Counted from the stretch's first letter, positions 1-15,425 are shown. The stretch is DNA of 64,000 bases from Candidatus Kerfeldbacteria bacterium (GCA_016182555.1 JACPGJ010000008.1:220272-284271), one strand, 5' to 3'. The notes: a model not told the origin generated them from the sequence alone. Numbers and translations: made by a program.

Positions 1-1526
1 AGGCTAGCTTCTTTTTCATTATCGTATAGAATAGGCGCCGTTTGATCTAAGCCCAATTTTTCTAGCACTCTCATCCAAGGATAAGCATGACCTAAATTCA
101 TTTCATACGAACGAGACACTTCATCTTTTACAGTATCTCTATAAGCCGGACGTGCGTGAAAAAGCAATGCATTATTATATGGAGGTCGAAGATTGCTGAT
201 ACTTTTCACCCGTCTATCAATATCATACCATGAATGATTTGACCAACTACCTACTGGAGCATAGCTCTGCGTTGCTACATAACTTGGATGAACATCAAAT
301 AGTTGTCTCGGTTGCTCGCAGTTACTTTGAATGCCTGTTGCTCCATTTATTTCCATGGCATATACTACTGCCCCAGCATTGACTGCTTGAATATCAGAGG
401 AAAAATTCATACCCTCGGGCATCCAGGAATTTATTACAACATCTACTTTTGATGCTCTTTGCTTTAAGACATCATCAATTTCTTGATTAACTTTGTCAAT
501 GAATTGTTGATGCTGCTGTTTAAATATTTCTTGTATAGGAGATGCTTCAATGAATCCAGCAGCTTTATACGTTTTTTCCATTGCTTTTTTCTTTGCGATA
601 GTAAACAAATCAGTAAATTCCCGTAAATTATCTACTACTTCATCTGAAAGTTGAATATGAAAATTCTCTTCTATTATTCTTCTGCATTGTTGTACAAATT
701 CCTGAGGATTTTCTCCAATCACCTCAGACTGAGTGAGCGACCATTGGACAGCTTTACTGAGATGGCCCAAATCTTTCCATTGCGCTTTACCTATAGATAA
801 TAATGTAGCACGCTTTTCTAGCAACGGCAGCATCTCCGTATCCTCTGCATACTGCTGTTGCAAAAAGTCTAAGGTTGTTGCGCATGTGTAAGACAAAGCT
901 GCTTCATCTTTATATATTCTATTAAAACTATCTAACTGTTTCTTATCTGGATCAACAATATGATAATTCACATTGAACCCATTTTCTCGTGCCATATCAA
1001 CAATGAGTTTACCTAGTGCTCCTGATGCACCACCTACATCAATAATTTCAATTGGGTCAGTAGATTTTTTCTCACCCACCCGAATACGTTCTTGATGAAT
1101 ACCAGTTGCTATTGCCAAAATACGTGCGATATCCTCATTGGTAGGCACCCAAAAAATAACCCTGTTTTCAAAAATTTGATATGGGTCTCCACTTTCCAGC
1201 CAATTTTTTGGATCATTTTCGAATTCAGCATAGGAAAGAATCTCATGAGTTGGATCAATCCCGCTCAGAAAAATATTTCTCAATGCCCGTTCAACATCAA
1301 AGCGTAATGTTTCATAATAACGATCAAAAGTATCATCTGTGTGTTCTAACTGTTCTAAGGCAATAATTTTATCATATAGCTGCTCTATACTTGGTAGCAG
1401 ATGTCTGAATCTGGTTTCATTAGTTGTTAGTACATCCAGAGCACTCCGACCAGTTGTTTCAAGCTCCGTAAGCAGAAGTTTTTTGAACTCGGGTGTTCTT
1501 GATTTTGATAATTTAAATTCCGACAT
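1..1526 (-). CDS. class I SAM-dependent methyltransferase domain protein; 3' end runs off the window
   Basis: My translation of the minus strand from the ATG at 1524-1526 stays open to position 1 (>500 aa). It contains a motif I SAM-binding loop IDVGGASGALG followed by an acidic residue; no DPPY/NPPY seen, so substrate unknown. Confidence 0.5.
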   Translation of the reverse strand, partial: MSEFKLSKSRTPEFKKLLLTELETTGRSALDVLTTNETRFRHLLPSIEQLYDKIIALEQLEHTDDTFDRYYETLRFDVERALRNIFLSGIDPTHEILSYAEFENDPKNWLESGDPYQIFENRVIFWVPTNEDIARILAIATGIHQERIRVGEKKSTDPIEIIDVGGASGALGKLIVDMARENGFNVNYHIVDPDKKQLDSFNRIYKDEAALSYTCATTLDFLQQQYAEDTEMLPLLEKRATLLSIGKAQWKDLGHLSKAVQWSLTQSEVIGENPQEFVQQCRRIIEENFHIQLSDEVVDNLREFTDLFTIAKKKAMEKTYKAAGFIEASPIQEIFKQQHQQFIDKVNQEIDDVLKQRASKVDVVINSWMPEGMNFSSDIQAVNAGAVVYAMEINGATGIQSNCEQPRQLFDVHPSYVATQSYAPVGSWSNHSWYDIDRRVKSISNLRPPYNNALLFHARPAYRDTVKDEVSRSYEMNLGHAYPWMRVLEKLGLDQTAPILYDNEKEAS

Positions 1527-1900
1527 TTTGATAGGCTGTTTTGCGAATACTATTAGTGAGAAGATGAATAAATTAATCTAGAATTTTTTTTATTCTACCA
1601 TAAAATCTCATAACTACAAAAGCATATAAACAGAAGGATACAGTAAATAACTAGCCTTGGAGGTCACGATTTTTCTGTTTGTACTACTTGGCAGGCATGG
1701 CAGGACGGCTTTCGAACTTTTGATTGGAAGAAAGCTGTGCCACTGCCTGAATTGGTTATAAAGAATGTAACAGAACTTTGTGCGTTTGTTTAGTAAACTA
1801 AACTAGTTGTTAAAAAATGAGGAGGAAAGGGCTGAGGTGAGGCGCAAACAGGAAGACCGAAGTCGTCTGCTGCACCTCACCCCCTTGCTGATGCTGATGA

Positions 1901-2158
1901 TCAGTTCTCCGTCGCAGCCTTGACCCGCAACGGGAAGATACCAACAGCCAGATAGACCAGCGTCGAACTGACGATTCCGATATCAAGGATGTAGGCCAGA
2001 ATCTGGGTCATGGTTGGTGAAATAACCCACCCCATCTTGAGAATAATCCTCTCGATCATGGTGGCCACGAGCTCGAACATTGGGAAAGTTATAATAACCC
2101 CCACGATAATGGCCACCACGAGACCAACGATAATCAGTACACGAGACTTGCTTGGCAT
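1901..2158 (-). CDS. small hydrophobic membrane protein (2 predicted TM helices)
   Basis: Track ORF 1901..2236 trimmed to the internal ATG (MPSKSRVLIIVGLVVAIIVGVIITF...). Hydrophobic profile only, no homology recognised. Confidence 0.3.
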   Translation of the reverse strand: MPSKSRVLIIVGLVVAIIVGVIITFPMFELVATMIERIILKMGWVISPTMTQILAYILDIGIVSSTLVYLAVGIFPLRVKAATEN

Positions 2159-2367
2159 CAGAACCTCCAGTGAGAAATGTCGCACTCGAGAATCGAGTCG
2201 ACCAAATAGTAAATCATAACCAAGCAGAAAAATCAAGGTTCACCTCAAATAATGGTTCTTCAGGAAAAGTTATGGGTAAAGGTTTAATTTTCCGCAGTGG
2301 AATAAGATTGCGATTCGGTAATTTTGGAAATTCATATCTAAATGTCTGAAAAATTTGGAGTCACTTT

Positions 2368-3537
2368 TTATCGATTTCCTTTTGCTCGATTGTGTGTTTT
2401 GCAGAGCATCTGGCAATTCTTGACCGAAGTAGCACCACCTTTACTCCAAGCTGCTACATGATCAGCGTCCATATCGCCTAAACTCCAAATCTTTTCCTTG
2501 TTGGCATCGTGTCTAAGAGCACAAAGGGGGCAGTTCGATTCTTTTTTCTTTTCGGCTTTTGTTGTTTGTATTTTGTATACTGATTTTTTTGTTGCTTCAT
2601 CAAAAACTCTAACATTCAGCAATTTCGTATCAGCAGAACCTCCTAAGATAAATTCAAAAATACCTTTGCGATTTTTAACATATGGATCGCCATACAGTTT
2701 TTGAACTTCTTCCGAAACCTTTTTTGGATTGTACGATTTTTTATGGTAAGCCTCATACAGTCGCCCCCACTCAAGTCCGCACATCTCGCTTTCTACGTCG
2801 GTAAATACGCTAGAAACCCAATCAATCACACTGTTGAAATATTTTTTCAATTCGGCAATATTTTTATCAAAACGATGACTACTCATGTAGTCTCCGATAT
2901 TACCTTTACTTACCCAATCGAGCGCACATTCCAGAAAATCCTGTCGATTTGCGCTACCTGATACATATGCACTCCATTTCTGAATGTTGGCGTTTTGGCT
3001 ATTGCTAAATTCTTCTTTTCCGAGTGTTACAAATGGCCCAGAATAGACGGCATTTAGTAACTCCTGATTATTGAGCGGGACACCGGCAATATTGATCGTT
3101 TTAAACCACTCTTTTATCTGGCTTTCTGTTCCTTCACATTCATAAATAAGTAATTTTGTTTCCAAAATCTTGGCTTTTTTATCCTTTGCCATCCCACTAA
3201 AATATTGTTCCATACCGTTTTCGTCTTTGATAGCAAATTTGTCAGTCACAAACCGCCCCACACTGGTGATACGCTGTTGCCCATCCAAAACTTCCAGCTT
3301 GTTTTCAGAAACCACATTAAAATAAATCAAACCTATTGGGTAACCTTTTAGTATCGATTCTATAACAGCAATTTCTCTTTTTCCACCATCGGAGGCATAG
3401 ATGTAGTTACGCTGATACTCCGGCTGAATAGTGAGCGAGCCCGCCAAACCGAACAACCCTTTACCTTCCAGTTCATTATAGACAAATCCTTCGCAAATAT
3501 CTTTGACGGTGATATCGGTTTTTAAAGTTGTTTTCAT
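2368..3537 (-). CDS. DUF262 (ParB-like NTPase/nuclease, DGQQR motif) fused to a C-terminal HNH nuclease; GmrSD-like type IV restriction architecture
   Basis: N-terminal [12 protein letters not shown] (ParB/Srx DGQQR). C-terminal [10 protein letters not shown]...[15 protein letters not shown] (HNH His-Me finger). Track start at 3558 is TTG; the ATG at 3535-3537 (MKTTLK...) is used here. Confidence 0.7.
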
Positions 3538-3567
3538 CTTATTATTTTTTAAAATCAAAATTAATGA

Positions 3568-4626
3568 CTAATTTTTATCTTTTATTTTTTTCTCTACCTT
3601 TTTTTCTAATTGCGCAAAACGATCGAAATCACTTTCAAATAATTGATCTTGCACAATACGATACCTCTCGAATTCTGTCTCAGCAAACTCCTTGGCAAGT
3701 TCGTGTGCAACTTTGCCCGCATCAGAAAGAATCTCTCGATCTGTCATCCGAATAAATCGATCAAGCCGCTCAGCCCAATCTGCCATCGTCATTGGAATGT
3801 GGCGCGTTGCCATATCTTCCGCAATATCCAGATATGCAGAAACCATACGTTCAAGAGAAAAAAGTTCTTTTTCTGTCAAATAGTTTTTTGCCACAAAAAC
3901 ATCAAATTTTTGAATCTTTCCGTGCGGGGAATCTTTCCAGCTCGTCAATCCCATGTGATCTTTTTCAGCGCTTGCTCGCGACATAATCACTTCAGCTGCT
4001 GTTTGCCCATGAATCGCCCAGTGTAGTTTATTTTGCACGGTTGCAAAAAATTTTTTGGTCGTTTCTGCAGTTTTGTCGTAATCAATGGCCGTTGCATAAA
4101 TATCCGTGATCTTTTGATAGAATTTTCTCTCTGATAATCGAATTTCTCGTATACGAGAGAGTAACTCTTCGAAAAATTGCTTGGTAAGAATGGTTCCGCC
4201 ATTTTTCAAACGTTCATCGTCCATGACAAAACCCTTGATCGTAAACTCTTTGACAATATCGCGCGCCCATTTCCGAAACTGCACGGCTCGCTCGTTCTCT
4301 ATTTTAAAACCAACTGATATAACGACTTGCAAACTGTAGTGGTCTACATTGTATTTTTTACCATCCGTAGCAGTTATTAAGTATTTCTTAATAACTGAAC
4401 TGTCGACTTCGCCATCTTCCATAAGCTTTTTAAGATGCTGATTTACTGCCGATACGGACACACCATAGAGCTCTGCAATTAATTTCTGTGTAAGCCATAA
4501 GTTTTCATCTTCATAACGCAGTTCAACCGCTGTTTCTTGTTTACCGATTGCGGAAACATAAGTCAAATACTCCGCAGCCGATGAACGAATCGTAATGCCT
4601 CTCGTCTTTTTCTTTATTTTTATCAT
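3568..4626 (-). CDS. RhuM family (virulence-protein RhuM / Fic-associated DNA-binding domain) protein
   Basis: N-terminal ENLWLTQKLIAELYGVSVSAVNQHLKKL and the overall RhuM pattern; paralogous to the N-terminal half of 11588..12595. ATG at 4624-4626 checked. Confidence 0.6.
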   Translation of the reverse strand: MIKIKKKTRGITIRSSAAEYLTYVSAIGKQETAVELRYEDENLWLTQKLIAELYGVSVSAVNQHLKKLMEDGEVDSSVIKKYLITATDGKKYNVDHYSLQVVISVGFKIENERAVQFRKWARDIVKEFTIKGFVMDDERLKNGGTILTKQFFEELLSRIREIRLSERKFYQKITDIYATAIDYDKTAETTKKFFATVQNKLHWAIHGQTAAEVIMSRASAEKDHMGLTSWKDSPHGKIQKFDVFVAKNYLTEKELFSLERMVSAYLDIAEDMATRHIPMTMADWAERLDRFIRMTDREILSDAGKVAHELAKEFAETEFERYRIVQDQLFESDFDRFAQLEKKVEKKIKDKN

Positions 4627-4776
4627 ATTATTCTATAGTTGATTAATCACAAGCCATGCCGTCTCACCCTCAATACGCACCTAAATCCGCGGTGCCCCGT
4701 CCGAGCCTTCATAGATAATCATCCCGCCGGAATTATTATTTGTCATAGTATTTTGATCTTGTTTACTCATAATTTT

Positions 4777-5937
4777 TTACTTGTCGCAAATATATTTGAC
4801 AGTAATGTTGGTGTTTAAACATGATTTTAAATAATTCATCAAACAATGTCTTACAATATTTTCAAACCAATACGTGTAAGGTAATTTTTGAGAAGGAGGA
4901 AATTTACGATTATCAATCATCATTCCTAAAGACGGATCGGTATCCCACTTACCAGCGCCATGCATAAACTGACTAAGATACATAGGCTCACCAGAATGCA
5001 AATAACCTGATCGGCTATTATAAATTGTAGCCAAAACATCTGGTAAATTTTTCCTTGTAATCTTTACATGTTTAGCTTTCCAATTTCCACCCCTCAAACA
5101 ACCCTTTGAAAAATCGGTAATAAATCTGATAAATTTCTGCTTTGATTTTTCAATCAGAATTTTATCTTGTTTGTTCACCTTCAATATCTCTTTCAATTGT
5201 TTTTCCTGCTTCTTTGACAGCTTTTTTGATGTTCCAAATAAATTTGAAAACTTTTCGCCATCAAGCGGATTATCCTGCTTGTTCAGTTTATAACCTTGCG
5301 ACAAGGTTTCAATTGCTGAAACTAAACGAATAAATACCATTTCGCTATCCATGCCAACCTCTTTAAGCGATCGTGCATAGTGATAGCAAGCTAGGATAAA
5401 GCTTTGATGTTTTTGGTTATTTAACTCCCGTATCGTATTCAAAAAATCAGATAATCCTTTTGCAAAATTTCTTCCGCCTTCACTAAAAATCCTGGGGTGT
5501 ACACCTTTTACTGTCTTTTTATACAAAAACTCCTGTTCCATTTTTATTTTCAAACCATGATTCGTCAATTCGCCATGATATGTTGCAACGATGTAAAATC
5601 TGCATTGAAAATAAAGAGAAAATATGGCGAGTAATTCGCCAATTATGCCATCTTTAAAATAGTAGCCCCTCTTATCTGCTTTATCATTGTAGCCGCCTTC
5701 ATACTTAGGATATTGAACACGTAACAGGTAGTGATAGAGGCCATTCTTGTCTTGCTCTAAGGAAAAACCACCGCAAATTAATTTTTTATTTTCATAATCA
5801 AGTACGCCAGGTATATAACACTCACTCGCGAACTCATATTCATAATAATACGTTTCATCACTGGATTCAGGTAATTTTTCCACATTTCTAATCCACGCCA
5901 TTCGATTGTCATTATGTTTATTTAATTCATTTGCCAT
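4777..5937 (-). CDS. hypothetical protein; candidate restriction endonuclease partner of the adjacent MTase
   Basis: 386 aa, no recognisable motif. Ends 22 nt upstream of the start of... i.e. immediately downstream (same strand) of the EcoRI-family MTase, the classic R-M gene arrangement. ATG verified at 5935-5937. Confidence 0.35.
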   Translation of the reverse strand: MANELNKHNDNRMAWIRNVEKLPESSDETYYYEYEFASECYIPGVLDYENKKLICGGFSLEQDKNGLYHYLLRVQYPKYEGGYNDKADKRGYYFKDGIIGELLAIFSLYFQCRFYIVATYHGELTNHGLKIKMEQEFLYKKTVKGVHPRIFSEGGRNFAKGLSDFLNTIRELNNQKHQSFILACYHYARSLKEVGMDSEMVFIRLVSAIETLSQGYKLNKQDNPLDGEKFSNLFGTSKKLSKKQEKQLKEILKVNKQDKILIEKSKQKFIRFITDFSKGCLRGGNWKAKHVKITRKNLPDVLATIYNSRSGYLHSGEPMYLSQFMHGAGKWDTDPSLGMMIDNRKFPPSQKLPYTYWFENIVRHCLMNYLKSCLNTNITVKYICDK

Positions 5938-5958
5938 AAAATTTTTATCTCCAAAAAG

Positions 5959-7083
5959 TTATTTTTTCTTGTGTTTGATAAAAATTCGTTTGTACTGCTT
6001 TTTACCGTTTACATATGGCTCATTATGTTTTTTGAAATGTGGTAATTTGTATTTTTCATCAACTGCACCATTATCACTTGCTCCAAGAACTTCAAACTGA
6101 TCAGGGTTATATTTATCTAAAAAAGTAATCGGCACACCCATTACACCTTTGTAATCACTTGGTATTGAATCAGTAAAAGGCACTTCTATGGCATCATAAT
6201 TGTCATAATGATCGTACGACTCTTTGCCCTTTATTTCTTTGTGTTTGCTATATTTCAAATTCTCCCCCATGGTCATAAGTGGCAATGGTTGATGACGACG
6301 TCCGTGGTCAAGATTAGTAAGCCATAAACAACTATTAGTGGCAACAATTCTATCGCCATTTTCATCTATTCTAGCTTCTGTTCCATACAAATCGTAGGAT
6401 TTAGGTACAATAAATCCAGAAATCCATCTTCCCATTCCATTACCAAGCCATATTTCATTATTTTTAATTTTTTGAAATACTTCTTTATAAGTTATGCAAT
6501 TAATATTTCCAATAATTAAAAACTTTTTGTTGTAATCAAAAAGTTGCTTCACATACTCACGAAACAGACTGAACGGTGGGTTTGTTACAACAACGTCGGA
6601 TTGTTTAAGTAGATCTACACATTCATCGCTACGAAAATCGCCGTCACCCTCTAGGGGCGTCCACTCGTTATGTTTGTTTGCCTTTAACTGCTTGGCAACA
6701 TCCTTCAAGTTGAACTCACCATCGCCATCGATGTCGCCCACTTCGTTGATAATAAATTTGTTGGCATTTATCTTCGGACGCCCTTTTGATTTTATGAGAG
6801 TTTTATCATCACCAAACAACCCTAGTTGCGTGTTGGCTACGGGCGAGGGTTTGTAGCTGGTGGTGATAAGCTGTTTTAATCCAAGCTTGTTGAAATTGAG
6901 CACGAAATAGCGAAAAAAATTGCTCTCAAACGGATCGTCGCAGTTGCAATACACTACCTTGCCACGGAATACATCGGCGTTGTATTCCAAATACGCTTCA
7001 ATCTCTTTTTGAATATCAATATATTGAGTATAAAACTCATCATTCTTTGCTCGTTTTGCATTTGTAAGGTTATTGTTTGCCAT
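5959..7083 (-). CDS. N6-adenine DNA methyltransferase, EcoRI-methylase family
   Basis: N-terminal KNDEFYTQYIDI (DEFYT signature of the EcoRI_methylase family) and VVTNPPF (motif IV NPPF). ATG at 7081-7083. Confidence 0.75.
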   Translation of the reverse strand: MANNNLTNAKRAKNDEFYTQYIDIQKEIEAYLEYNADVFRGKVVYCNCDDPFESNFFRYFVLNFNKLGLKQLITTSYKPSPVANTQLGLFGDDKTLIKSKGRPKINANKFIINEVGDIDGDGEFNLKDVAKQLKANKHNEWTPLEGDGDFRSDECVDLLKQSDVVVTNPPFSLFREYVKQLFDYNKKFLIIGNINCITYKEVFQKIKNNEIWLGNGMGRWISGFIVPKSYDLYGTEARIDENGDRIVATNSCLWLTNLDHGRRHQPLPLMTMGENLKYSKHKEIKGKESYDHYDNYDAIEVPFTDSIPSDYKGVMGVPITFLDKYNPDQFEVLGASDNGAVDEKYKLPHFKKHNEPYVNGKKQYKRIFIKHKKK

Positions 7084-7087
7084 TTTT

Positions 7088-7234
7088 TTATTTCACTAAT
7101 TCATCAACAGAAACACTCAATGCTTTAGCAATCTTTTCTATAGTTGTTAGCGTTGGATTTTTCTTTGCACTCTCAATATTGCTAATATAAACTCGATCAA
7201 GGCCTATATCTCTGCAGATATCACTTTGGAACAT
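7088..7234 (-). pseudogene. 5'-truncated XRE-family HTH (R-M controller/C-protein-like) remnant
   Basis: Only helices 2-3 and the C-terminal part of an XRE HTH remain (ICRDIGLDRVYISNIESAKKNPTLTTIEKIAKALSVSVDELVK). The upstream in-frame sequence is the tRNA-Trp gene, so the N-terminus cannot be coding. Confidence 0.45.
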
Positions 7235-7245
7235 GTACTGAAATG

Positions 7246-7316
7246 CAGGGGTGGTCGGAATCGAACCGACAGTATTCGCTCTGGAGGCGAGTGGTTTGCC
7301 ACTAACCGACACCCCT
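7246..7316 (-). tRNA. trnW: tRNA-Trp (anticodon CCA)
   Basis: Cloverleaf folded by hand from the minus strand: acceptor AGGGGTG/CACCCCT, D arm GGTT/AACC, anticodon loop CUCCAGA, T arm GTCGG-TTCGATT-CCGAC. No encoded CCA. Confidence 0.8.
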
Positions 7317-8272: not shown

Positions 8273-8821
8273 TCAATAGCGCAATAATCGCTTAAATTGC
8301 TCCAACGTATTGGCCTGTTTCATACGAAATATTTCTAGAGCCAAGGAGCGACCAGCAAACTGCGCGCTTGTTGCAATATCAATAAATTCATCAAAGGAAA
8401 CTGCGCGTGTACTTATTTTCTCGCCGGGGTCTAATTGCGGTTCACCGGTTTGCTGGCAACCACTGGCAATATAGATAGAAATTTTCCAATCAATTTTATC
8501 GTTTGGTTCAAATACTTTCCAAAGATCCCACTGTTGTGCGGTGATGCCTGCTTCTTCTGCGAGTTCGCGTTGCCCGGTTTGCAAATCTGTCTCCCCTATT
8601 TCTTGTCGGCCGCCGAACAACGTATAGCAGGGTGCTTGCATTGGCTGCTCTTGCTGCGCAATCAAAATTTTTCCGTTCCTTACCGGAATCACTTCGACCG
8701 TATTCATCCGTTTAGCCGCTTCAAAGGTCGCTGTTGTCCCATCAAACAATTCTTGTTCCCACTGATATATATCAAAAATAATTCCGGAAAATACTTTTTT
8801 GGCGTGCGGCGGAATGTGCAT
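8273..8821 (-). CDS. NUDIX hydrolase
   Basis: Nudix box GGRQEIGETDLQTGQRELAEEAGI (GX5EX7REUXEEXGU). Confidence 0.8.
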   Translation of the reverse strand: MHIPPHAKKVFSGIIFDIYQWEQELFDGTTATFEAAKRMNTVEVIPVRNGKILIAQQEQPMQAPCYTLFGGRQEIGETDLQTGQRELAEEAGITAQQWDLWKVFEPNDKIDWKISIYIASGCQQTGEPQLDPGEKISTRAVSFDEFIDIATSAQFAGRSLALEIFRMKQANTLEQFKRLLRY

Positions 8822-10108: not shown

Positions 10109-10723
10109 TTAATTAAAGCTATATTCTTTCATTTTTTGTTGAAATTGGTTGAAATTTGAATAAAATTCTGCATGAATACCAAATTCACGGGCAACATCAA
10201 CATTTTGTTGTGTATCATCCCATAGGAGTAGCTCTTCTTTAGTACACGGCTGTAACTGCTGCAGTACGCGGGCAAAAAATTCGGGAGATCCTTTTGTATA
10301 CCCAATATCCGAACTAGAAAATACCCCATCAAACAACTGGTTAAATTGGAGCATCTCTCGCAAGTAGGTTGTTCGATGCTGTTCTTGATTAGTCGCCACA
10401 AAACAGCGGACCCCTTGGCTACGAAGCTGTGCGACAACATCAATCACACGACTGTCGATTGCATTCTCTGACCGAAACCAATAATCACAAAATTCATCCA
10501 CACTTCCCTGCCACTTCCATTGCACAAGATATGGCTGCAGCTCTTTTTTCAAGTCCGCTTTTCCCACGATACAATCGAGCAAGTGTTCAGTAAAAAATGG
10601 TGCGGTCTCTTCTTCAGTTAAATGAAAATCCTGATGCAAGTAATACGAAAATCGTTTGCCAGTAATGACAACGCCATCGCAATCAAATAGCACAACACGA
10701 ACGGTATGGTGATCATTCATCAT
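10109..10723 (-). CDS. HAD-superfamily hydrolase
   Basis: Motif I VVLFDCDGVV (DxDGT/V) at the N-terminus, 204 aa. Confidence 0.7.
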   Translation of the reverse strand: MMNDHHTVRVVLFDCDGVVITGKRFSYYLHQDFHLTEEETAPFFTEHLLDCIVGKADLKKELQPYLVQWKWQGSVDEFCDYWFRSENAIDSRVIDVVAQLRSQGVRCFVATNQEQHRTTYLREMLQFNQLFDGVFSSSDIGYTKGSPEFFARVLQQLQPCTKEELLLWDDTQQNVDVAREFGIHAEFYSNFNQFQQKMKEYSFN

Positions 10724-11020
10724 ATATATTTCAGCCTATACCATTTCCAAGAAAAATGCTACCGTATGGTCATATTAAAAAAATCCCGTATGACCTACGA
10801 TTATTTTATTGCTTCGCGGTACAGAAACAAAGAAACAGTCTTGGAACTGGCACACAAAATTCGTGGTGAATGTATTTTGATCGGAGAACAGCAAGAAACT
10901 GAAAGCCTATATCTCATTTTTGATGAATCATACTCGACCATTGATGAGTTTATTCACCGCATAAAATAAAATTATATTTTGCGCTGCAAATATTTTTTCG
11001 TTTTGCGTATAGCAAATTTT

Positions 11021-11542
11021 CTAATAGAGCATAACATTCGCCACCGAAAATAGATCGCTATATGTGGTCATCAGAAAAACAATTCCTGCAACACCAGCAA
11101 TAAATAATAACTGGTCAACTACTCCATTCACTGGCGTGGTCAACCACTTCGGCAGTAAACGAATCCGTTTCCGCCAGGGAAAGAAATATTCGACGCCAGG
11201 TTTATTGAAACCATCGATGATTGGATGGCTCGCATAACCAAGAATCATCACCATCGGCAGAGCTGGATGATACGAACTCAAAAATAACTGAGTAAGAATA
11301 GCGATGATACTGATAGCGAGGAATGAATGAAAAAATCCGCGATGATGAAAAACCCCACGAAAAACTCCGAGTGCTCCACTGCCCATATAATGAATTTTTG
11401 CTGATGTTGCATCGATGTCTGGAAGTAAGGCTGCCAATGCACCAATAGCGAGCAACACGGGCACTTCATTGCCCAGTGGATACACTAATGCTGCCACCCA
11501 TACGGCATTCGCTCCAACAACGGCATGTGTTTTCCCACTCAT
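11021..11542 (-). CDS. membrane-bound metal-dependent hydrolase, YdjM/DUF457 family
   Basis: MSGKTHAVVG...LPDIDATSAKIHYMG...SHPIIDGF pattern and multiple TM segments. Confidence 0.55.
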   Translation of the reverse strand: MSGKTHAVVGANAVWVAALVYPLGNEVPVLLAIGALAALLPDIDATSAKIHYMGSGALGVFRGVFHHRGFFHSFLAISIIAILTQLFLSSYHPALPMVMILGYASHPIIDGFNKPGVEYFFPWRKRIRLLPKWLTTPVNGVVDQLLFIAGVAGIVFLMTTYSDLFSVANVMLY

Positions 11543-11587
11543 AGGTAAAATATTATAGTGAAAAAAGGATCAAAATAGAATATATCA

Positions 11588-12595
11588 TTACCGAGCAATG
11601 AAATTCATAATAAGTGCGACCATGGTTTCTTTTTGTTGGGGTTTGCTTTGCGCGATCAACAATGCGAGTGCAACGAGTGCATTGTTGTTAAATTTTCGTT
11701 CACCAATTTTGTTGAATAATAATTTATTCCGTTCAAGAAAAAGAATAAATAGAAACGAACCAATGCGTTTATTGCCGTCAGTGAATGGATGGTCTTTAAT
11801 AATAAAATACAACAGGTGCGCCGCTTTTGCCTCAATGCTTGAATATAACTCTTTACCGCCAAATGTTTGATAGATGTTTCCCAAAATGGCATGTAACATT
11901 TCATTCCGTTCACGACCAAAAATTTCTGTGGCTTCTTTTTTGCGCATTAAACTTAATTTCAGCTCGTGTATTGCTACTTGAGCAATGTCGGAGGTCAATC
12001 GATAGGCTAACTTGTGTTTTTTCACCGGTGCAGGAATGTTTTCATCATCATACTGCTGCAACCATATCCACGTATCAGCGTACTGGGTAATAATTTCCAG
12101 CAAACCTTCAGATTCAGAACGGCTCAACTGTTGTGCATGCATGGTTTGTTTTATCAACGTTAGCGCATTTTCTAAATCGCGAAGAGGTGCTTGGGGTAGG
12201 CGGTGCTTATTGACCGTGAAACCTTTCACTAAATGGTCACGCAAAACACGCGTCGCCCAAATACGAAATTGTGTACCTTCTTTGGAATTTACTCTATAGC
12301 CTATAGAAAGAATCATATCGAGATTATAGAACTCAATTTCACGTTCTATTTCACGATTCCCCTCTTTTTGAACTGTTGCAAAATTTGCAACAGTTGAAGC
12401 TTTATCTAACTCAAGAGATGCATAGATGTTTCGTATATGTCTCGAAATACCAGACTTATCCACAGCAAAGAGTTGTGACAATTGGTTTAATGTTAACCAT
12501 ACTGTCTCATTGAGAATCTTAACTTCAACTGAGAGTTTCCCAGTCTTAGACTGGTAAATCATAATTTCGCCCGTGTTTTTTGGCATACGTTTCAT
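11588..12595 (-). CDS. RhuM-like N-terminal domain fused to a Fic/Doc domain (HPFTDGNKRIGSF)
   Basis: N-terminus IMIYQSKTGKLSVEVKILNETVWLTLNQLSQLF (RhuM). C-terminal HPFTDGNKRIG, the Doc-type variant of the Fic motif HxFx(D/E)GNxR. Track start at 12631 is TTG; the ATG at 12593-12595 is used. Confidence 0.65.
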   Translation of the reverse strand: MKRMPKNTGEIMIYQSKTGKLSVEVKILNETVWLTLNQLSQLFAVDKSGISRHIRNIYASLELDKASTVANFATVQKEGNREIEREIEFYNLDMILSIGYRVNSKEGTQFRIWATRVLRDHLVKGFTVNKHRLPQAPLRDLENALTLIKQTMHAQQLSRSESEGLLEIITQYADTWIWLQQYDDENIPAPVKKHKLAYRLTSDIAQVAIHELKLSLMRKKEATEIFGRERNEMLHAILGNIYQTFGGKELYSSIEAKAAHLLYFIIKDHPFTDGNKRIGSFLFILFLERNKLLFNKIGERKFNNNALVALALLIAQSKPQQKETMVALIMNFIAR

Positions 12596-12639
12596 GTGAG
12601 TTATATTATACACAACTGAATATTCAGGCAAATAGAAAA

Positions 12640-12660
12640 CGCCCGGTTTGGGGACGTCTT
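12640..12660 (-). terminator. weak rho-independent terminator after the zinc-ribbon gene
   Basis: On the minus strand: CGTCC-CCAAACC-GGGCG followed by TTTTCTATTT. Confidence 0.3.
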
Positions 12661-12697
12661 CTAGAAGTATAGCACAATTCGTGGTAGAGGCAACGGT

Positions 12698-13024
12698 TTA
12701 TGCCGCGTCTTTCCAGCGTTTCAGTTCGTGCATGTTTTTAGTGAACTTACGAGCCAGGAAACCTGGAATATGCATCTCCTTCATTTTCCCTTCCACTTTC
12801 GTTTTCATCTCTTCAAAAGTGATAGTCGGCTCAGTAAATTGACCGTTTTGATAACAACGGCTGCAATATTCGCTACTTTTCGTACCGTCGGCATTGGTAC
12901 CACCGCCTTGTTCATCTTTGGAAAGCGGCATGCCACAACTTTGGCAAAACGGCCCTTTTGGTTGAAACATAGGATAACAATAATGATTATAGCTGTAGCC
13001 TAGCAAACCTGTGCTGAAACGCAA
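12698..13024 (-). CDS. putative zinc-ribbon domain protein (paralog of 25659..25928)
   Basis: CQSCGMPL...CSRCYQNGQFTEPTITFEEM...KRWK aligns with CQSCAMPM...CTHCYQKGAFTQPNISMEQM...KRWK in the other copy. Start is probably at the internal MFQPKG (about 12970). Confidence 0.45.
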   Translation of the reverse strand: MRFSTGLLGYSYNHYCYPMFQPKGPFCQSCGMPLSKDEQGGGTNADGTKSSEYCSRCYQNGQFTEPTITFEEMKTKVEGKMKEMHIPGFLARKFTKNMHELKRWKDAA

Positions 13025-13052
13025 CTATCGAACGCGCGCTGTCCTGCAATTT

Positions 13053-15425
13053 CTATTTCTTTACCTTCACACTCAGCGCATCTGATTGTGCAGAAACGTA
13101 TTCGTTTGTATCATCATTTTTTGGTGACCATTTTGCGACAAACTTCACTTTCTTTTGTGCTGGCTTTATTTTTACGGTAATCGTTGCTACTCCTTTCGCA
13201 TTGGTCTTACCATGCCCCACACCTGTTAATGTATCTCCAATCTTACGAAACAAATTCACGCGTTGCTGCGACAATTTTTTATTCGTCACCGCATCTTTCA
13301 ATGTGGTTTTTACTTGCACTGTTGTTTTCTTTGCTGATTGTGCTCCTCGATGTTGTGTTCCAACGCGAGCGGCTTTATTTACTTTTTTCAACGTGAGCGA
13401 GGCTTTCGATTTCAAATCAAACAAACCACGTGATGTTCCGGCAATCGTGCCATCAAAGAACAATGTATAGAATGTTTCATCCTGCAAACCAGTATACAAT
13501 GTGCCCCATGTTTCTCCGCCATCACTCGATTTCAATAATACTCCTTGGCTGTAATAATTCGTGGCACCCAGATACAACGTATTTGGTTCAGTCGAAGCCT
13601 GAACAGTGAGACTGTGGTATTCTCGCAAACGATCCAAACCTTCAGTAATTTTTGTCCAAGTCTCGCCTGCATCCGTTGATTTATAGAAACCGAAATTCGT
13701 TGTGTCATTATTCCCATATTCAATACTGGCAATGGCATAGACGGTAGAATCATCATCTGGATCAACAGCCACCTTCACCACTTCTTCCTCTGGTGAATTA
13801 TCTACATGCGTCCATTCACTATCGCTGTATTTATAGATACCTGTTTTATACGATGTTCCCCCTTCAGCGCCGACACCAACATAGATATCTCCATTAGATG
13901 CTTGTGCAATGGTTTGTGCGGCTGGGCCGTCTAATAGCTCCATATCTTCCCATGTCGCACCCAGATCTGTTGATTTGAATACATATCCTGTTTTTGGCAC
14001 ATTCGGATCATTGCTCATCACTGCCGCATACAAGGTATTTTCATCACTCACATCTTGAATAATTTCATTGACCACATAGTCGGTAGTGATCAAGTCAGAA
14101 ATGAGATTTTCAGACCACGTATCGCCACCATCTGTGGTACGGACAATCGCGCCAATTTCACCAGCCACCACAATATTCCCATCATCGGGTTTCACCCAAA
14201 TGGCTCCTCCTGGTTCTTGAATCACAAATGACCAGGTTGGGTTTTCGGAAGTGAAATTTTCGGTTTTCACAATACCGTTATACGCCGCACCCCACATAAT
14301 ATTTTTGTCTGTGGCTTGGCTGATATCCGTAATGGTTACCCCCAAAATACCTTGGTTCATATCCGCCCACGTTTCTCCACGGTCAATACTCTTACTTAAG
14401 CCCGGTATACCATCCACATACAACACATCCACATCTGTCGGGTCAATGGTAATATTGTGTCCACCCAGCGCGGTATTCGATTCATCTTGGCCAAGAGCTT
14501 CCCACGTTGCGCCACCATCGTTGGAATATTGTTCACTAAAATATAAGCGGCCTTCTTGATCAAACACACAGGTTTGCGACATGACTGCTGTTTCTACCCA
14601 GGTATCGCCACCATCAGCGCTGTAATACCCGTTCGCATTATACCCACCGCTAAGAGCAATATTATTCGCATCTGTCGGATTCACACACACGCGTGGACCA
14701 GCGGAATTATCTTGGATAGTCGGAATAGTCAATTCACTCCATGTTGCCGCGCTATCTGTTGAACGATACACACGGGTAACATAGTCAGAATCAAAACCGA
14801 GTGCATAGAATTCGCCGTCTGTTGGCGAACTCTCCAGCCACCAAATCGTCACTCCATCTGCCACCATGACGGTGTCAAAATTGTCTCCTTCATCGCTGCT
14901 CACTAATACTGCACCGGCAGTGCTATTACTTGATGTGATGAGCACACCTTGTGCATATAACAGAGCGGTTCCAAAATCTTCTGAAATACGAGTGAATGTA
15001 ACGCCATTGTCTTCGCTACGATATAACCCACCATTAAATGCTGTAAATACATTGCCATTATCTTGGTTCACTTCTACGGCAACACCGCCGCCATAATCAA
15101 CACCCTCTATTCCTTCCCAGGTGTCACCACCATCATTCGAGCGATAAAAACCATTCGGTGAATCTTTTGCCACGGTATACACATAGCCACTCGTCGAATC
15201 AATCGCCACATCCCACAAGTCACCGCCGTAGGGACCCAATGGTTGTACATCAGCGGTTTCCGTATTATCCGCTACTGGTACCTCACCGCCATCACCATCA
15301 CCGCCGCTAAAATCACCATTATCACCTTCCTCGGCGCGTACAGTGTAGGCATACGCACAAAGCACAATAGCTACGCTTGCAAAAATAATGCTAAACGCAC
15401 GCTTGTTGAATACGTGTTCCTCCAT
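13053..15425 (-). CDS. secreted BNR/Asp-box repeat protein with Lys-rich C-terminal tail
   Basis: N-terminal signal-like hydrophobic segment; at least 9 SxDxGxTW Asp-box repeats (SNDGGDTW, SADGGDTW, SNDGGATW, TTDGGDTW, STDLGATW, STDAGETW, SSDGGETW...); C-terminal ~130 aa is K-rich. Confidence 0.65.
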   Translation of the reverse strand: MEEHVFNKRAFSIIFASVAIVLCAYAYTVRAEEGDNGDFSGGDGDGGEVPVADNTETADVQPLGPYGGDLWDVAIDSTSGYVYTVAKDSPNGFYRSNDGGDTWEGIEGVDYGGGVAVEVNQDNGNVFTAFNGGLYRSEDNGVTFTRISEDFGTALLYAQGVLITSSNSTAGAVLVSSDEGDNFDTVMVADGVTIWWLESSPTDGEFYALGFDSDYVTRVYRSTDSAATWSELTIPTIQDNSAGPRVCVNPTDANNIALSGGYNANGYYSADGGDTWVETAVMSQTCVFDQEGRLYFSEQYSNDGGATWEALGQDESNTALGGHNITIDPTDVDVLYVDGIPGLSKSIDRGETWADMNQGILGVTITDISQATDKNIMWGAAYNGIVKTENFTSENPTWSFVIQEPGGAIWVKPDDGNIVVAGEIGAIVRTTDGGDTWSENLISDLITTDYVVNEIIQDVSDENTLYAAVMSNDPNVPKTGYVFKSTDLGATWEDMELLDGPAAQTIAQASNGDIYVGVGAEGGTSYKTGIYKYSDSEWTHVDNSPEEEVVKVAVDPDDDSTVYAIASIEYGNNDTTNFGFYKSTDAGETWTKITEGLDRLREYHSLTVQASTEPNTLYLGATNYYSQGVLLKSSDGGETWGTLYTGLQDETFYTLFFDGTIAGTSRGLFDLKSKASLTLKKVNKAARVGTQHRGAQSAKKTTVQVKTTLKDAVTNKKLSQQRVNLFRKIGDTLTGVGHGKTNAKGVATITVKIKPAQKKVKFVAKWSPKNDDTNEYVSAQSDALSVKVKK

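Follow-up and report, generated by a model that had tools for sequence, protein, structure and literature searches.

Restriction-modification (R-M) systems of the EcoRI type are two-gene modules that consist of a gamma-class methyltransferase of the PF13651 family and a nuclease of the PD-(D/E)XK type. Another group of defence proteins, which comprises GmrSD, BrxU and SspE, combines an N-terminal DUF262 domain that carries the DGQQR motif with a C-terminal nuclease domain of the His-Me finger type, DUF1524 (EHxxP), and its GmrSD-type members act alone on modified DNA. Moreover, Anantharaman et al. described in 2013 HEPN and RhuM/DOC genes that are embedded in R-M operons, an arrangement that was read as multilevel defence (PMC3710099). 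A single-gene anti-phage system with a HEPN-type motif, ApeA, cleaves tRNA anticodon loops and leads to abortive infection (bioRxiv 10.64898/2026.01.26.701840). In this study, we analysed a stretch of 64,000 nucleotides (nt) from Candidatus Kerfeldbacteria bacterium (Patescibacteria; metagenome-assembled genome GCA_016182555.1, JACPGJ010000008.1:220272-284271), which is called the window at its full length, and focused on the genes that lie just after tRNA-Trp (positions 2368-7316; Table 1). Counted from the tRNA, these encode a 5'-truncated helix-turn-helix (HTH) regulator, an EcoRI-family methyltransferase (M), a HEPN-like protein of 386 amino acids (aa), a RhuM-family protein and a DUF262-HNH nuclease (R). 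All five genes had already been listed in the original prediction, which was made from the sequence of the window, and all are present: four were recovered here using Pfam and PADLOC, and the fifth is the 386-aa open reading frame (ORF). In our opinion, the region is probably a horizontally acquired, R-M-centred defence islet in which the M-R pair was split by the HEPN-like and RhuM genes as cargo.

The module at the centre of this interpretation was recognised from the domains of M and R and, above all, from the arrangement of their homologues. M matches the EcoRI_methylase family over its full length (E 1e-131) and the PADLOC MTase_II model with an E value of 1.6e-117, and both the DEFYT and the NPPF motifs are present. 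Its identity to the methylase that adjoins R.EcoRI on Escherichia coli plasmids is 48.7%, and it reaches 53-58% with the methylases that are paired with DUF262-HNH nucleases, which makes M closer to the latter than to the methylase of EcoRI. The ORF of R spans 2368-3558, and its likely start, as set by the homologues, is the ATG at 3537. The N-terminus of R matches GmrSD_N (E 1e-20) and includes LDGQQRI; its C-terminus is an HNH domain with CxxC pairs. A survey of plasmids using tblastn identified R homologues (E<=1e-40) in 45 records; M was found directly upstream of R and on the same strand in at least 36 of them and within 3 kb in four more. In the IMG/VR contigs, where only the loci with DNA upstream of R were counted, M preceded R on the same strand in all of the 22 informative loci at a distance of no more than about 300 bp and mostly of no more than about 30 bp, as judged by the tblastn coordinates. 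Annotated M-R pairs occur across Bacillota, Actinomycetota and Pseudomonadota, and the two genes overlap by up to 4 nt or are separated by up to 10 nt: the stop and start codons overlap in Pediococcus, the genes also overlap in Arthrobacter, and they are separated by 2 nt in Leuconostoc and by 10 nt in both Enterococcus faecium and Moraxella. Because the homologues form this conserved, co-oriented pair, M and the DUF262-HNH protein R are best regarded as one type II-like R-M module with the order M then R. Such a module resembles the EcoRI-type systems in its methyltransferase family and in its two-gene composition, but differs from them in its nuclease, which is composed of DUF262 and HNH domains, and in the order of the genes. 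PDB sequence searches with R and M gave nothing useful, and NCBIfam offered no names for either protein.

The original prediction had interpreted R differently, as a modification-dependent nuclease of GmrSD-like type IV architecture beside a methylating type II-like system, a pairing that it considered notable. R would then be a modification-dependent enzyme that shares an island with an orphan or unrelated methylase by chance, which would agree with its match to GmrSD_N, with the name 'McrA' that the Joint Genome Institute (JGI) gives to some of its homologues and with the 2.4 kb that separate M and R in the window. We consider this highly improbable. The adjacency of M and R is kept across four phyla and in every informative viral-contig locus, and a nuclease that attacked the product of its partner methylase could not be stably co-inherited. 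Additionally, the best PADLOC match of R, over its full length, is a type II restriction endonuclease (REase_II PDLC03418; 268 bits, E 2.9e-80); DUF1524 was absent in Pfam, and no GmrSD, BrxU or SspE model of PADLOC was matched at E<=0.01. R shares with these proteins the N-terminal DUF262 domain with DGQQR and a C-terminal nuclease of the His-Me finger type, but in R this nuclease is an HNH of the canonical kind, with zinc ligands in CxxC form, and, unlike the GmrSD-type enzymes that act alone, R has its gene immediately behind that of an EcoRI-family M in almost all cases. Since it is obligately paired with a methyltransferase, R is not expected to be modification-dependent. Both the type IV assignment and the chance association of the two genes have to be given up in favour of an operon partnership, and the annotation of DUF262-HNH proteins that are encoded beside EcoRI-family methylases should be corrected from type IV enzymes to R-M partners.

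Two features of R do not fit easily into the picture of a classical type II enzyme. As a rule, the nucleases of type II systems show more rapid divergence than the methylases. Across 17 M-R pairs, the mean pairwise identity was 0.73 for R, uniformly along the protein, and 0.60 for M, whose variable blocks were located at approximately aa 80-140, 200-260 and 340-360, and R is accordingly more conserved than M, the reverse of the usual pattern. The other feature is the ParB-like NTPase domain of R, which is unexplained for a type II enzyme. Both could be accommodated in an Ssp-like pair, in which the DUF262 NTPase would sense the methyl mark of the host as 'self' and would license or tune the HNH nuclease, instead of the nuclease being simply blocked at methylated sites: the greater conservation of R is unusual for type II pairs, and a classical type II enzyme would have no obvious use for an NTPase domain. 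A precedent for mark-dependent action is SspE, a DUF262-DUF1524 protein that requires the phosphorothioate mark of its host in order to act (PMC9646914). Against such a mechanism, the variable blocks of M may be loops and not specificity determinants, and PADLOC classes the R family as a type II restriction endonuclease; we find the Ssp-like reading quite unlikely and retain the type II-like module.

In contrast to this compact arrangement, M and R of the window are separated by the HEPN-like and RhuM genes. Neither a HEPN nor a RhuM gene was found between M and R in any of the 22 IMG/VR loci, and because none of these viral-contig loci shows the split, the comparison indicates that the split is derived. 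A trace of the event has been preserved. The 386-aa ORF ends in 17 codons that derive, in frame, from the 5' end of R (codons 1-17). In this relic, designated R', 36 of the 51 nt are identical to R; none of 500 shuffles reached 36, the best having 30. Moreover, the C-terminus of the 386-aa protein extends about 10 aa beyond its homologues. These features mark R' as a recombination scar. Other carriers of the module have different genes at the same junction. On a Phocaeicola replicon, the order is HTH, M, a Bro-N protein, R and an integrase, and its 67-aa HTH gene ends 4 nt ahead of M, the same as in the window. In the Enterococcus dispar plasmid pK205-4b-C (L015, 61-4699), optrA, which confers oxazolidinone/phenicol resistance, is situated between M and R, and the Enterococcus hirae plasmid NZ_CP088184.1 has the same M-R spacing of about 2.7 kb, the comparison covering the spacing alone. 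The M-R junction repeatedly hosts cargo, including a linezolid-resistance gene in an enterococcal plasmid, which may interest those who track the joint travel of resistance and defence genes.

Table 1. Features of the region just after tRNA-Trp, with positions counted from the first letter of the window
Feature	Position	Strand	Length	Evidence
R, DUF262 (ParB-like NTPase) and HNH nuclease, intact	2368-3537	-	389 aa	PF03235, PF01844, PADLOC REase_II
RhuM-family protein, N-terminal winged HTH and RhuM core	3568-4626	-	352 aa	PF13310, PADLOC PDC-S05
HEPN-like protein (distantly Apea-like)	4777-5937	-	386 aa	homologues, Rx4H motif, AlphaFold2 model
R' scar, in-frame relic of DUF262-HNH codons 1-17	4780-4830	-		direct repeat D2
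M, EcoRI-family N6-adenine DNA methyltransferase, intact	5959-7083	-	374 aa	PF13651, PADLOC MTase_II
5'-truncated XRE-type HTH gene	7088-7240	-		Pfam HTH_3, PADLOC Control_protein
tRNA-Trp (CCA anticodon)	7245-7316	-		ARAGORN; Rfam; alignment with six relatives

The first of the two cargo genes had been described as an orphan, which our searches did not bear out. The 386-aa protein had no match in Pfam, PADLOC or NCBIfam; it belongs to a HEPN-like family with at least 254 homologues, of which 45 were aligned (47-90% identity) and some are named 'HEPN' or 'Apea-like HEPN' by the source databases. The residues R309 and H314 of its Rx4H motif (R309-S-G-Y-L-H314) are invariant in the 45 sequences. 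In the AlphaFold2 model (predicted local distance difference test 88.6, predicted template modelling score 0.89), a beta-rich N-terminal domain is followed by a helical C-terminal domain, and the Rx4H motif lies within the helix 298-315. An Rx4H motif of the HEPN type in a helical C-terminal domain is also a feature of ApeA, and HEPN_Apea weakly matches a few of the homologues; however, Ec2ApeA is a protein of 583 residues or more with three domains that are mostly helical (bioRxiv 10.64898/2026.01.26.701840), as opposed to the 386 aa and the beta-rich N-terminus of the protein in the window. Marginal matches to the PADLOC model Cas13-ApeA were obtained for two of the 45 aligned homologues and for the window protein none, and a PDB sequence search with the HEPN profile gave nothing useful. 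Based on the motif, the homologues and the position of the motif in a predicted helix, the protein is considered to be HEPN-like and not a canonical ApeA. The possibility that this ORF is the cognate PD-(D/E)XK restriction endonuclease of M was rejected, because the family is named HEPN, has the Rx4H motif and follows many unrelated genes.

The HEPN-like gene starts 21 nt past the stop codon of M, and close placement behind another gene is common in its family: a co-directional gene ends no more than 60 bp ahead of the HEPN start in 33 of the 53 loci that had upstream DNA. L025, the locus of the nearest homologue (89% identity), likewise has an EcoRI-family M ahead of the HEPN gene, and this M is 71% identical to that of the window. 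Elsewhere, the upstream genes encode MmeI-type enzymes, an N6_N4 methyltransferase, BsaWI-type restriction endonucleases, a UvrD-like helicase, DUF4209 proteins or an integrase. In nine metagenome loci (L053, L058, L059, L067, L069, L071, L074, L093 and L094), a family of about 512 aa, for which no Pfam match was found in the one member that was scanned, is encoded directly upstream of HEPN; in six of these loci the HEPN ORF is a long, apparently fused form. This family and HEPN may constitute an uncharacterised two-gene system. About one fifth of the listed HEPN homologues are proteins of 527-543 aa with a gamma-glutamylcyclotransferase/AIG2-like domain (PF13772, PF06094; P0071, P0073, P0079 etc.).

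The second cargo gene encodes a protein that matches PF13310 at positions 1-249 of 252 (E 5.7e-108) as well as the phage-defence candidate PDC-S05 of PADLOC (E 4e-143). With genes for a predicted HEPN RNase and a RhuM protein enclosed by those of an R-M system, the region corresponds to the R-M operons with embedded HEPN and RhuM genes, for which a multilevel defence that acts on DNA, RNA and protein was proposed (PMC3710099), and the islet is of a known kind, an ordinary defence islet. It differs from the nested cases of PrrC/RloC and of the ApeA-like proteins in that its HEPN protein lacks an ABC-ATPase domain and is far shorter than either PrrC or ApeA. In the classic EcoprrI-PrrC case, the host is a type I R-M system, whereas the host module of the window is two-gene and type II-like. 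A second RhuM-related gene was found in the window at 11588-12631 on the minus strand; it encodes 347 aa, in which the N-terminal part of RhuM (positions 1-70 of 252) is fused to Fic/DOC, and fusions of the RhuM-Fic/DOC type were mentioned in the 2013 HEPN survey (PMC3710099).

The HTH gene is truncated at its 5' end. Its product matches HTH_3 at profile positions 12-55 of 55 (E 1.2e-11) and Control_protein at positions 23-69 of 77, and it is without approximately 20 N-terminal codons (helix 1) relative to the intact homologues, which have 67-68 aa in L016 and L022. The reading frame extends back into tRNA-Trp, where a usable upstream start is absent, and the stop codon lies 4 nt ahead of the start codon of M. 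That the gene is truncated next to the tRNA, as was originally suggested, is confirmed by the internal start of the profile matches, by the frame that runs into the tRNA and by the lack of a usable start. The fragment is 54-61% identical to its closest intact homologues, and these are located upstream of HEPN homologues: immediately upstream in L022 and L032 and with one intervening gene in L029. In L034-L036, an HTH homologue lies about 1.2 kb upstream of a BsaWI-type restriction endonuclease and HEPN. Additionally, the HTH-HEPN pair of L022 has as its neighbour a gene for a large serine recombinase, which overlaps with tRNA-Gly, and other HEPN loci also adjoin integrases or tRNA genes (L023, L095 and L003).

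Considering these features together, we propose the following explanation for the origin and function of the islet. M would mark adenines in the host DNA at a site that is possibly related to GAATTC, and R would cut DNA that does not carry the mark of M. The two cargo genes would have recombined into the M-R junction, one such event being recorded by the R' relic. The HEPN-like protein, a predicted RNase, would probably act as a second defence line by halting translation once the cell is infected, and RhuM, a predicted toxin or DNA-binding protein, may add an abortive or toxin-type layer. The HTH regulator, which is normally the head of HTH...HEPN operons, has lost its first approximately 20 codons together with its promoter, most likely through a deletion in which a recombinase next to the tRNA was lost too, so that the island would have become fixed in place. 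M and the HEPN-like gene would presumably be transcribed by read-through from the promoter of tRNA-Trp; a promoter scan, which is weak evidence, detected a promoter-like site at 7364-7336, ahead of tRNA-Trp, and no terminator-like site between tRNA-Trp and M. A further-reaching joint reading is that the M-R junction may serve repeatedly as a site for cargo in a highly mobile R-M module, with HEPN and RhuM in the window, the Bro-N protein in Phocaeicola and optrA in E. dispar, that HEPN may be wired to the R-M system in the way PrrC is to EcoprrI, i.e., silenced and released when a phage disables restriction, and that R may be an NTP-dependent nuclease that senses the methyl mark. Taken as a whole, we judge this combination to be unlikely.

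The horizontal acquisition of the islet is indicated by the distribution of its genes. R is 60-70% and M 42-58% identical to plasmid genes from four other phyla, and the homologues of R number more than 8000. Within Patescibacteria, R of the same length (389 aa in nearly all cases) was present at 88-93% identity in more than 100 clusters from Magasanikbacteria, Kerfeldbacteria, Wolfebacteria, Paceibacterota and Parcubacteria as well as one Chloroflexi metagenome-assembled genome. Because of both the closeness of R and M to these plasmid genes and the identity of R across Patescibacteria, the DNA of the islet is, on sequence comparison, clearly of foreign origin. Housekeeping orthologues, by comparison, are just 42-76% identical between the window and the rest of Kerfeldbacteria, and the 88-93% identity of R points to the module having spread horizontally, very recently and widely, among Patescibacteria. 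A module that is found at about 90% protein identity in so many members of this group points to an intense recent exchange of defence genes among bacteria with reduced genomes. An intact R that is 92% identical to that of the window was also observed in Kerfeldbacteria RIFOXYA2_FULL_38_24 (P0194).

The placement of the islet was examined by comparison with the relatives in which the same tRNA cluster could be located. No close relative was available: the nearest ones are 55-64% identical in the flanking HIT protein, a scan of genome contigs with the HIT protein revealed no relative, a look-up of the exact HIT protein returned no entry, and the DNA pattern of tRNA-Trp retrieved one distant genome only. 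Upstream of tRNA-Trp in the window are tRNA-Tyr, tRNA-Thr, rpmG and the HIT gene, an order that is kept in the distant relatives. The region after the cluster differed in six of six distant relatives (in L021, there was no tRNA-Trp in the stretch examined) and included surface proteins, glycosyltransferases and a terminase-containing stretch, and the five relatives other than L008 have unrelated genes there. In L008, which also belongs to Kerfeldbacteria, tRNA-Trp is followed (10463-14481) by two small ORFs, a RhuM gene whose product is 45% identical to that of the window, and a decayed R, with no M. The R remnant has three deletions, and its identity to R of the window is 82% and 71%, compared with at most 63% to the plasmid copies. 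The decay of R in L008 fits a loss of M beforehand.

The original prediction had also placed the HTH remnant directly against the tRNA end, of which the truncation stood and the position did not. The 3' trailer of tRNA-Trp, CAGTACA, is native and common to the window and the relatives, and because of this shared trailer, the boundary with the foreign DNA lies about 10 nt beyond the end of tRNA-Trp rather than at the end itself. In the window, the 3' CCA of tRNA-Trp is not encoded, the sequence being TGCATTT (7244-7250). A chimeric tRNA-Trp as an integration scar was considered and rejected, as L007 and L020 have exactly the same tRNA-Trp as the window. In L020, the tRNA-Trp is likewise without an encoded 3' CCA (TGCAT..., 8655-8665), five other relatives encode TGCCA, and a Terminase_2 gene lies about 3 kb downstream of the L020 tRNA-Trp.

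Several observations weigh against our interpretation. With regard to the R-M module, no biochemical characterisation of an M and DUF262-HNH pair was found in the literature searched, and it is the M-R linkage alone that suggests a protection of sites by the methylation of M. GAATTC is mildly depleted, with 15 occurrences observed vs 27.8 expected, and its avoidance was rejected as evidence of specificity because the depletion is too weak. In the case of the HEPN-like protein, HEPN_Apea (PF18739) weakly matches three of the 45 homologues (best E 0.0017) and not the protein of the window, and a Foldseek search of its model against the PDB gave no match at E<1. As for the insertion, a search of the 64 kb for another copy of the tRNA-Trp 3' end, with up to three mismatches allowed, found none, and there is no integrase ORF in 1-7245 or in the window as a whole; the original prediction had likewise reported neither an integrase nor a repeat of the tRNA end. 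The GC content is 36.8% in the islet and 40.8% elsewhere, and values as low as this occur in 34 of 237 sliding windows; base composition was rejected as evidence for an island, the islet being no outlier. The promoter scan showed no enrichment over shuffles, and its model may not suit Patescibacteria.

It is possible to explain the region without any island insertion, i.e., as a fast-turnover stretch of a reduced genome that was assembled piecemeal through illegitimate and homologous recombination and in which the HTH gene suffered an ordinary deletion. The lack of an integrase, of an attachment (att) repeat and of a compositional outlier would be expected under such a scenario, which also agrees with the rearranged gene order around the tRNA cluster in all relatives and with the R' scar as a sign of stepwise recombination inside the module. 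Nevertheless, the truncated HTH gene is separated by about 10 nt from the tRNA 3' end, where integration classically takes place. At other loci (L022, L023, L095, L003), homologous modules of the HTH-HEPN or HEPN kind adjoin recombinases and tRNA genes, and in the second Kerfeldbacteria genome, L008, RhuM and an R of this family occur at the same tRNA. We regard this scenario as somewhat unlikely, and prefer the acquisition of a defence islet next to tRNA-Trp. The region resembles the islands that target tRNA genes in having foreign defence genes about 10 nt from a tRNA 3' end at a site whose content varies among relatives, but differs from them in the absence of an integrase, of a flanking repeat of the tRNA end and of a defined distal boundary past 2368. 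The integrated genomic island that was originally proposed was upheld in part: the foreign origin and the placement beside a tRNA are clear, and an integrase-mediated insertion is plausible.

The other side of the tRNA cluster was also compared. In L008, L010 and L019, a block of RF-1, S2, EF-Ts, PSP1 and TPR genes is followed by the tRNA-Tyr/Thr cluster within 0-5 kb. In the window, the same block is separated from the cluster by approximately 25 kb (8180-33036), so that this side of the cluster is rearranged as well. The intervening stretch includes genes for a YgjP-like peptidase, a DUF5674 protein and a BNR protein, as well as the RhuM-Fic gene described above.

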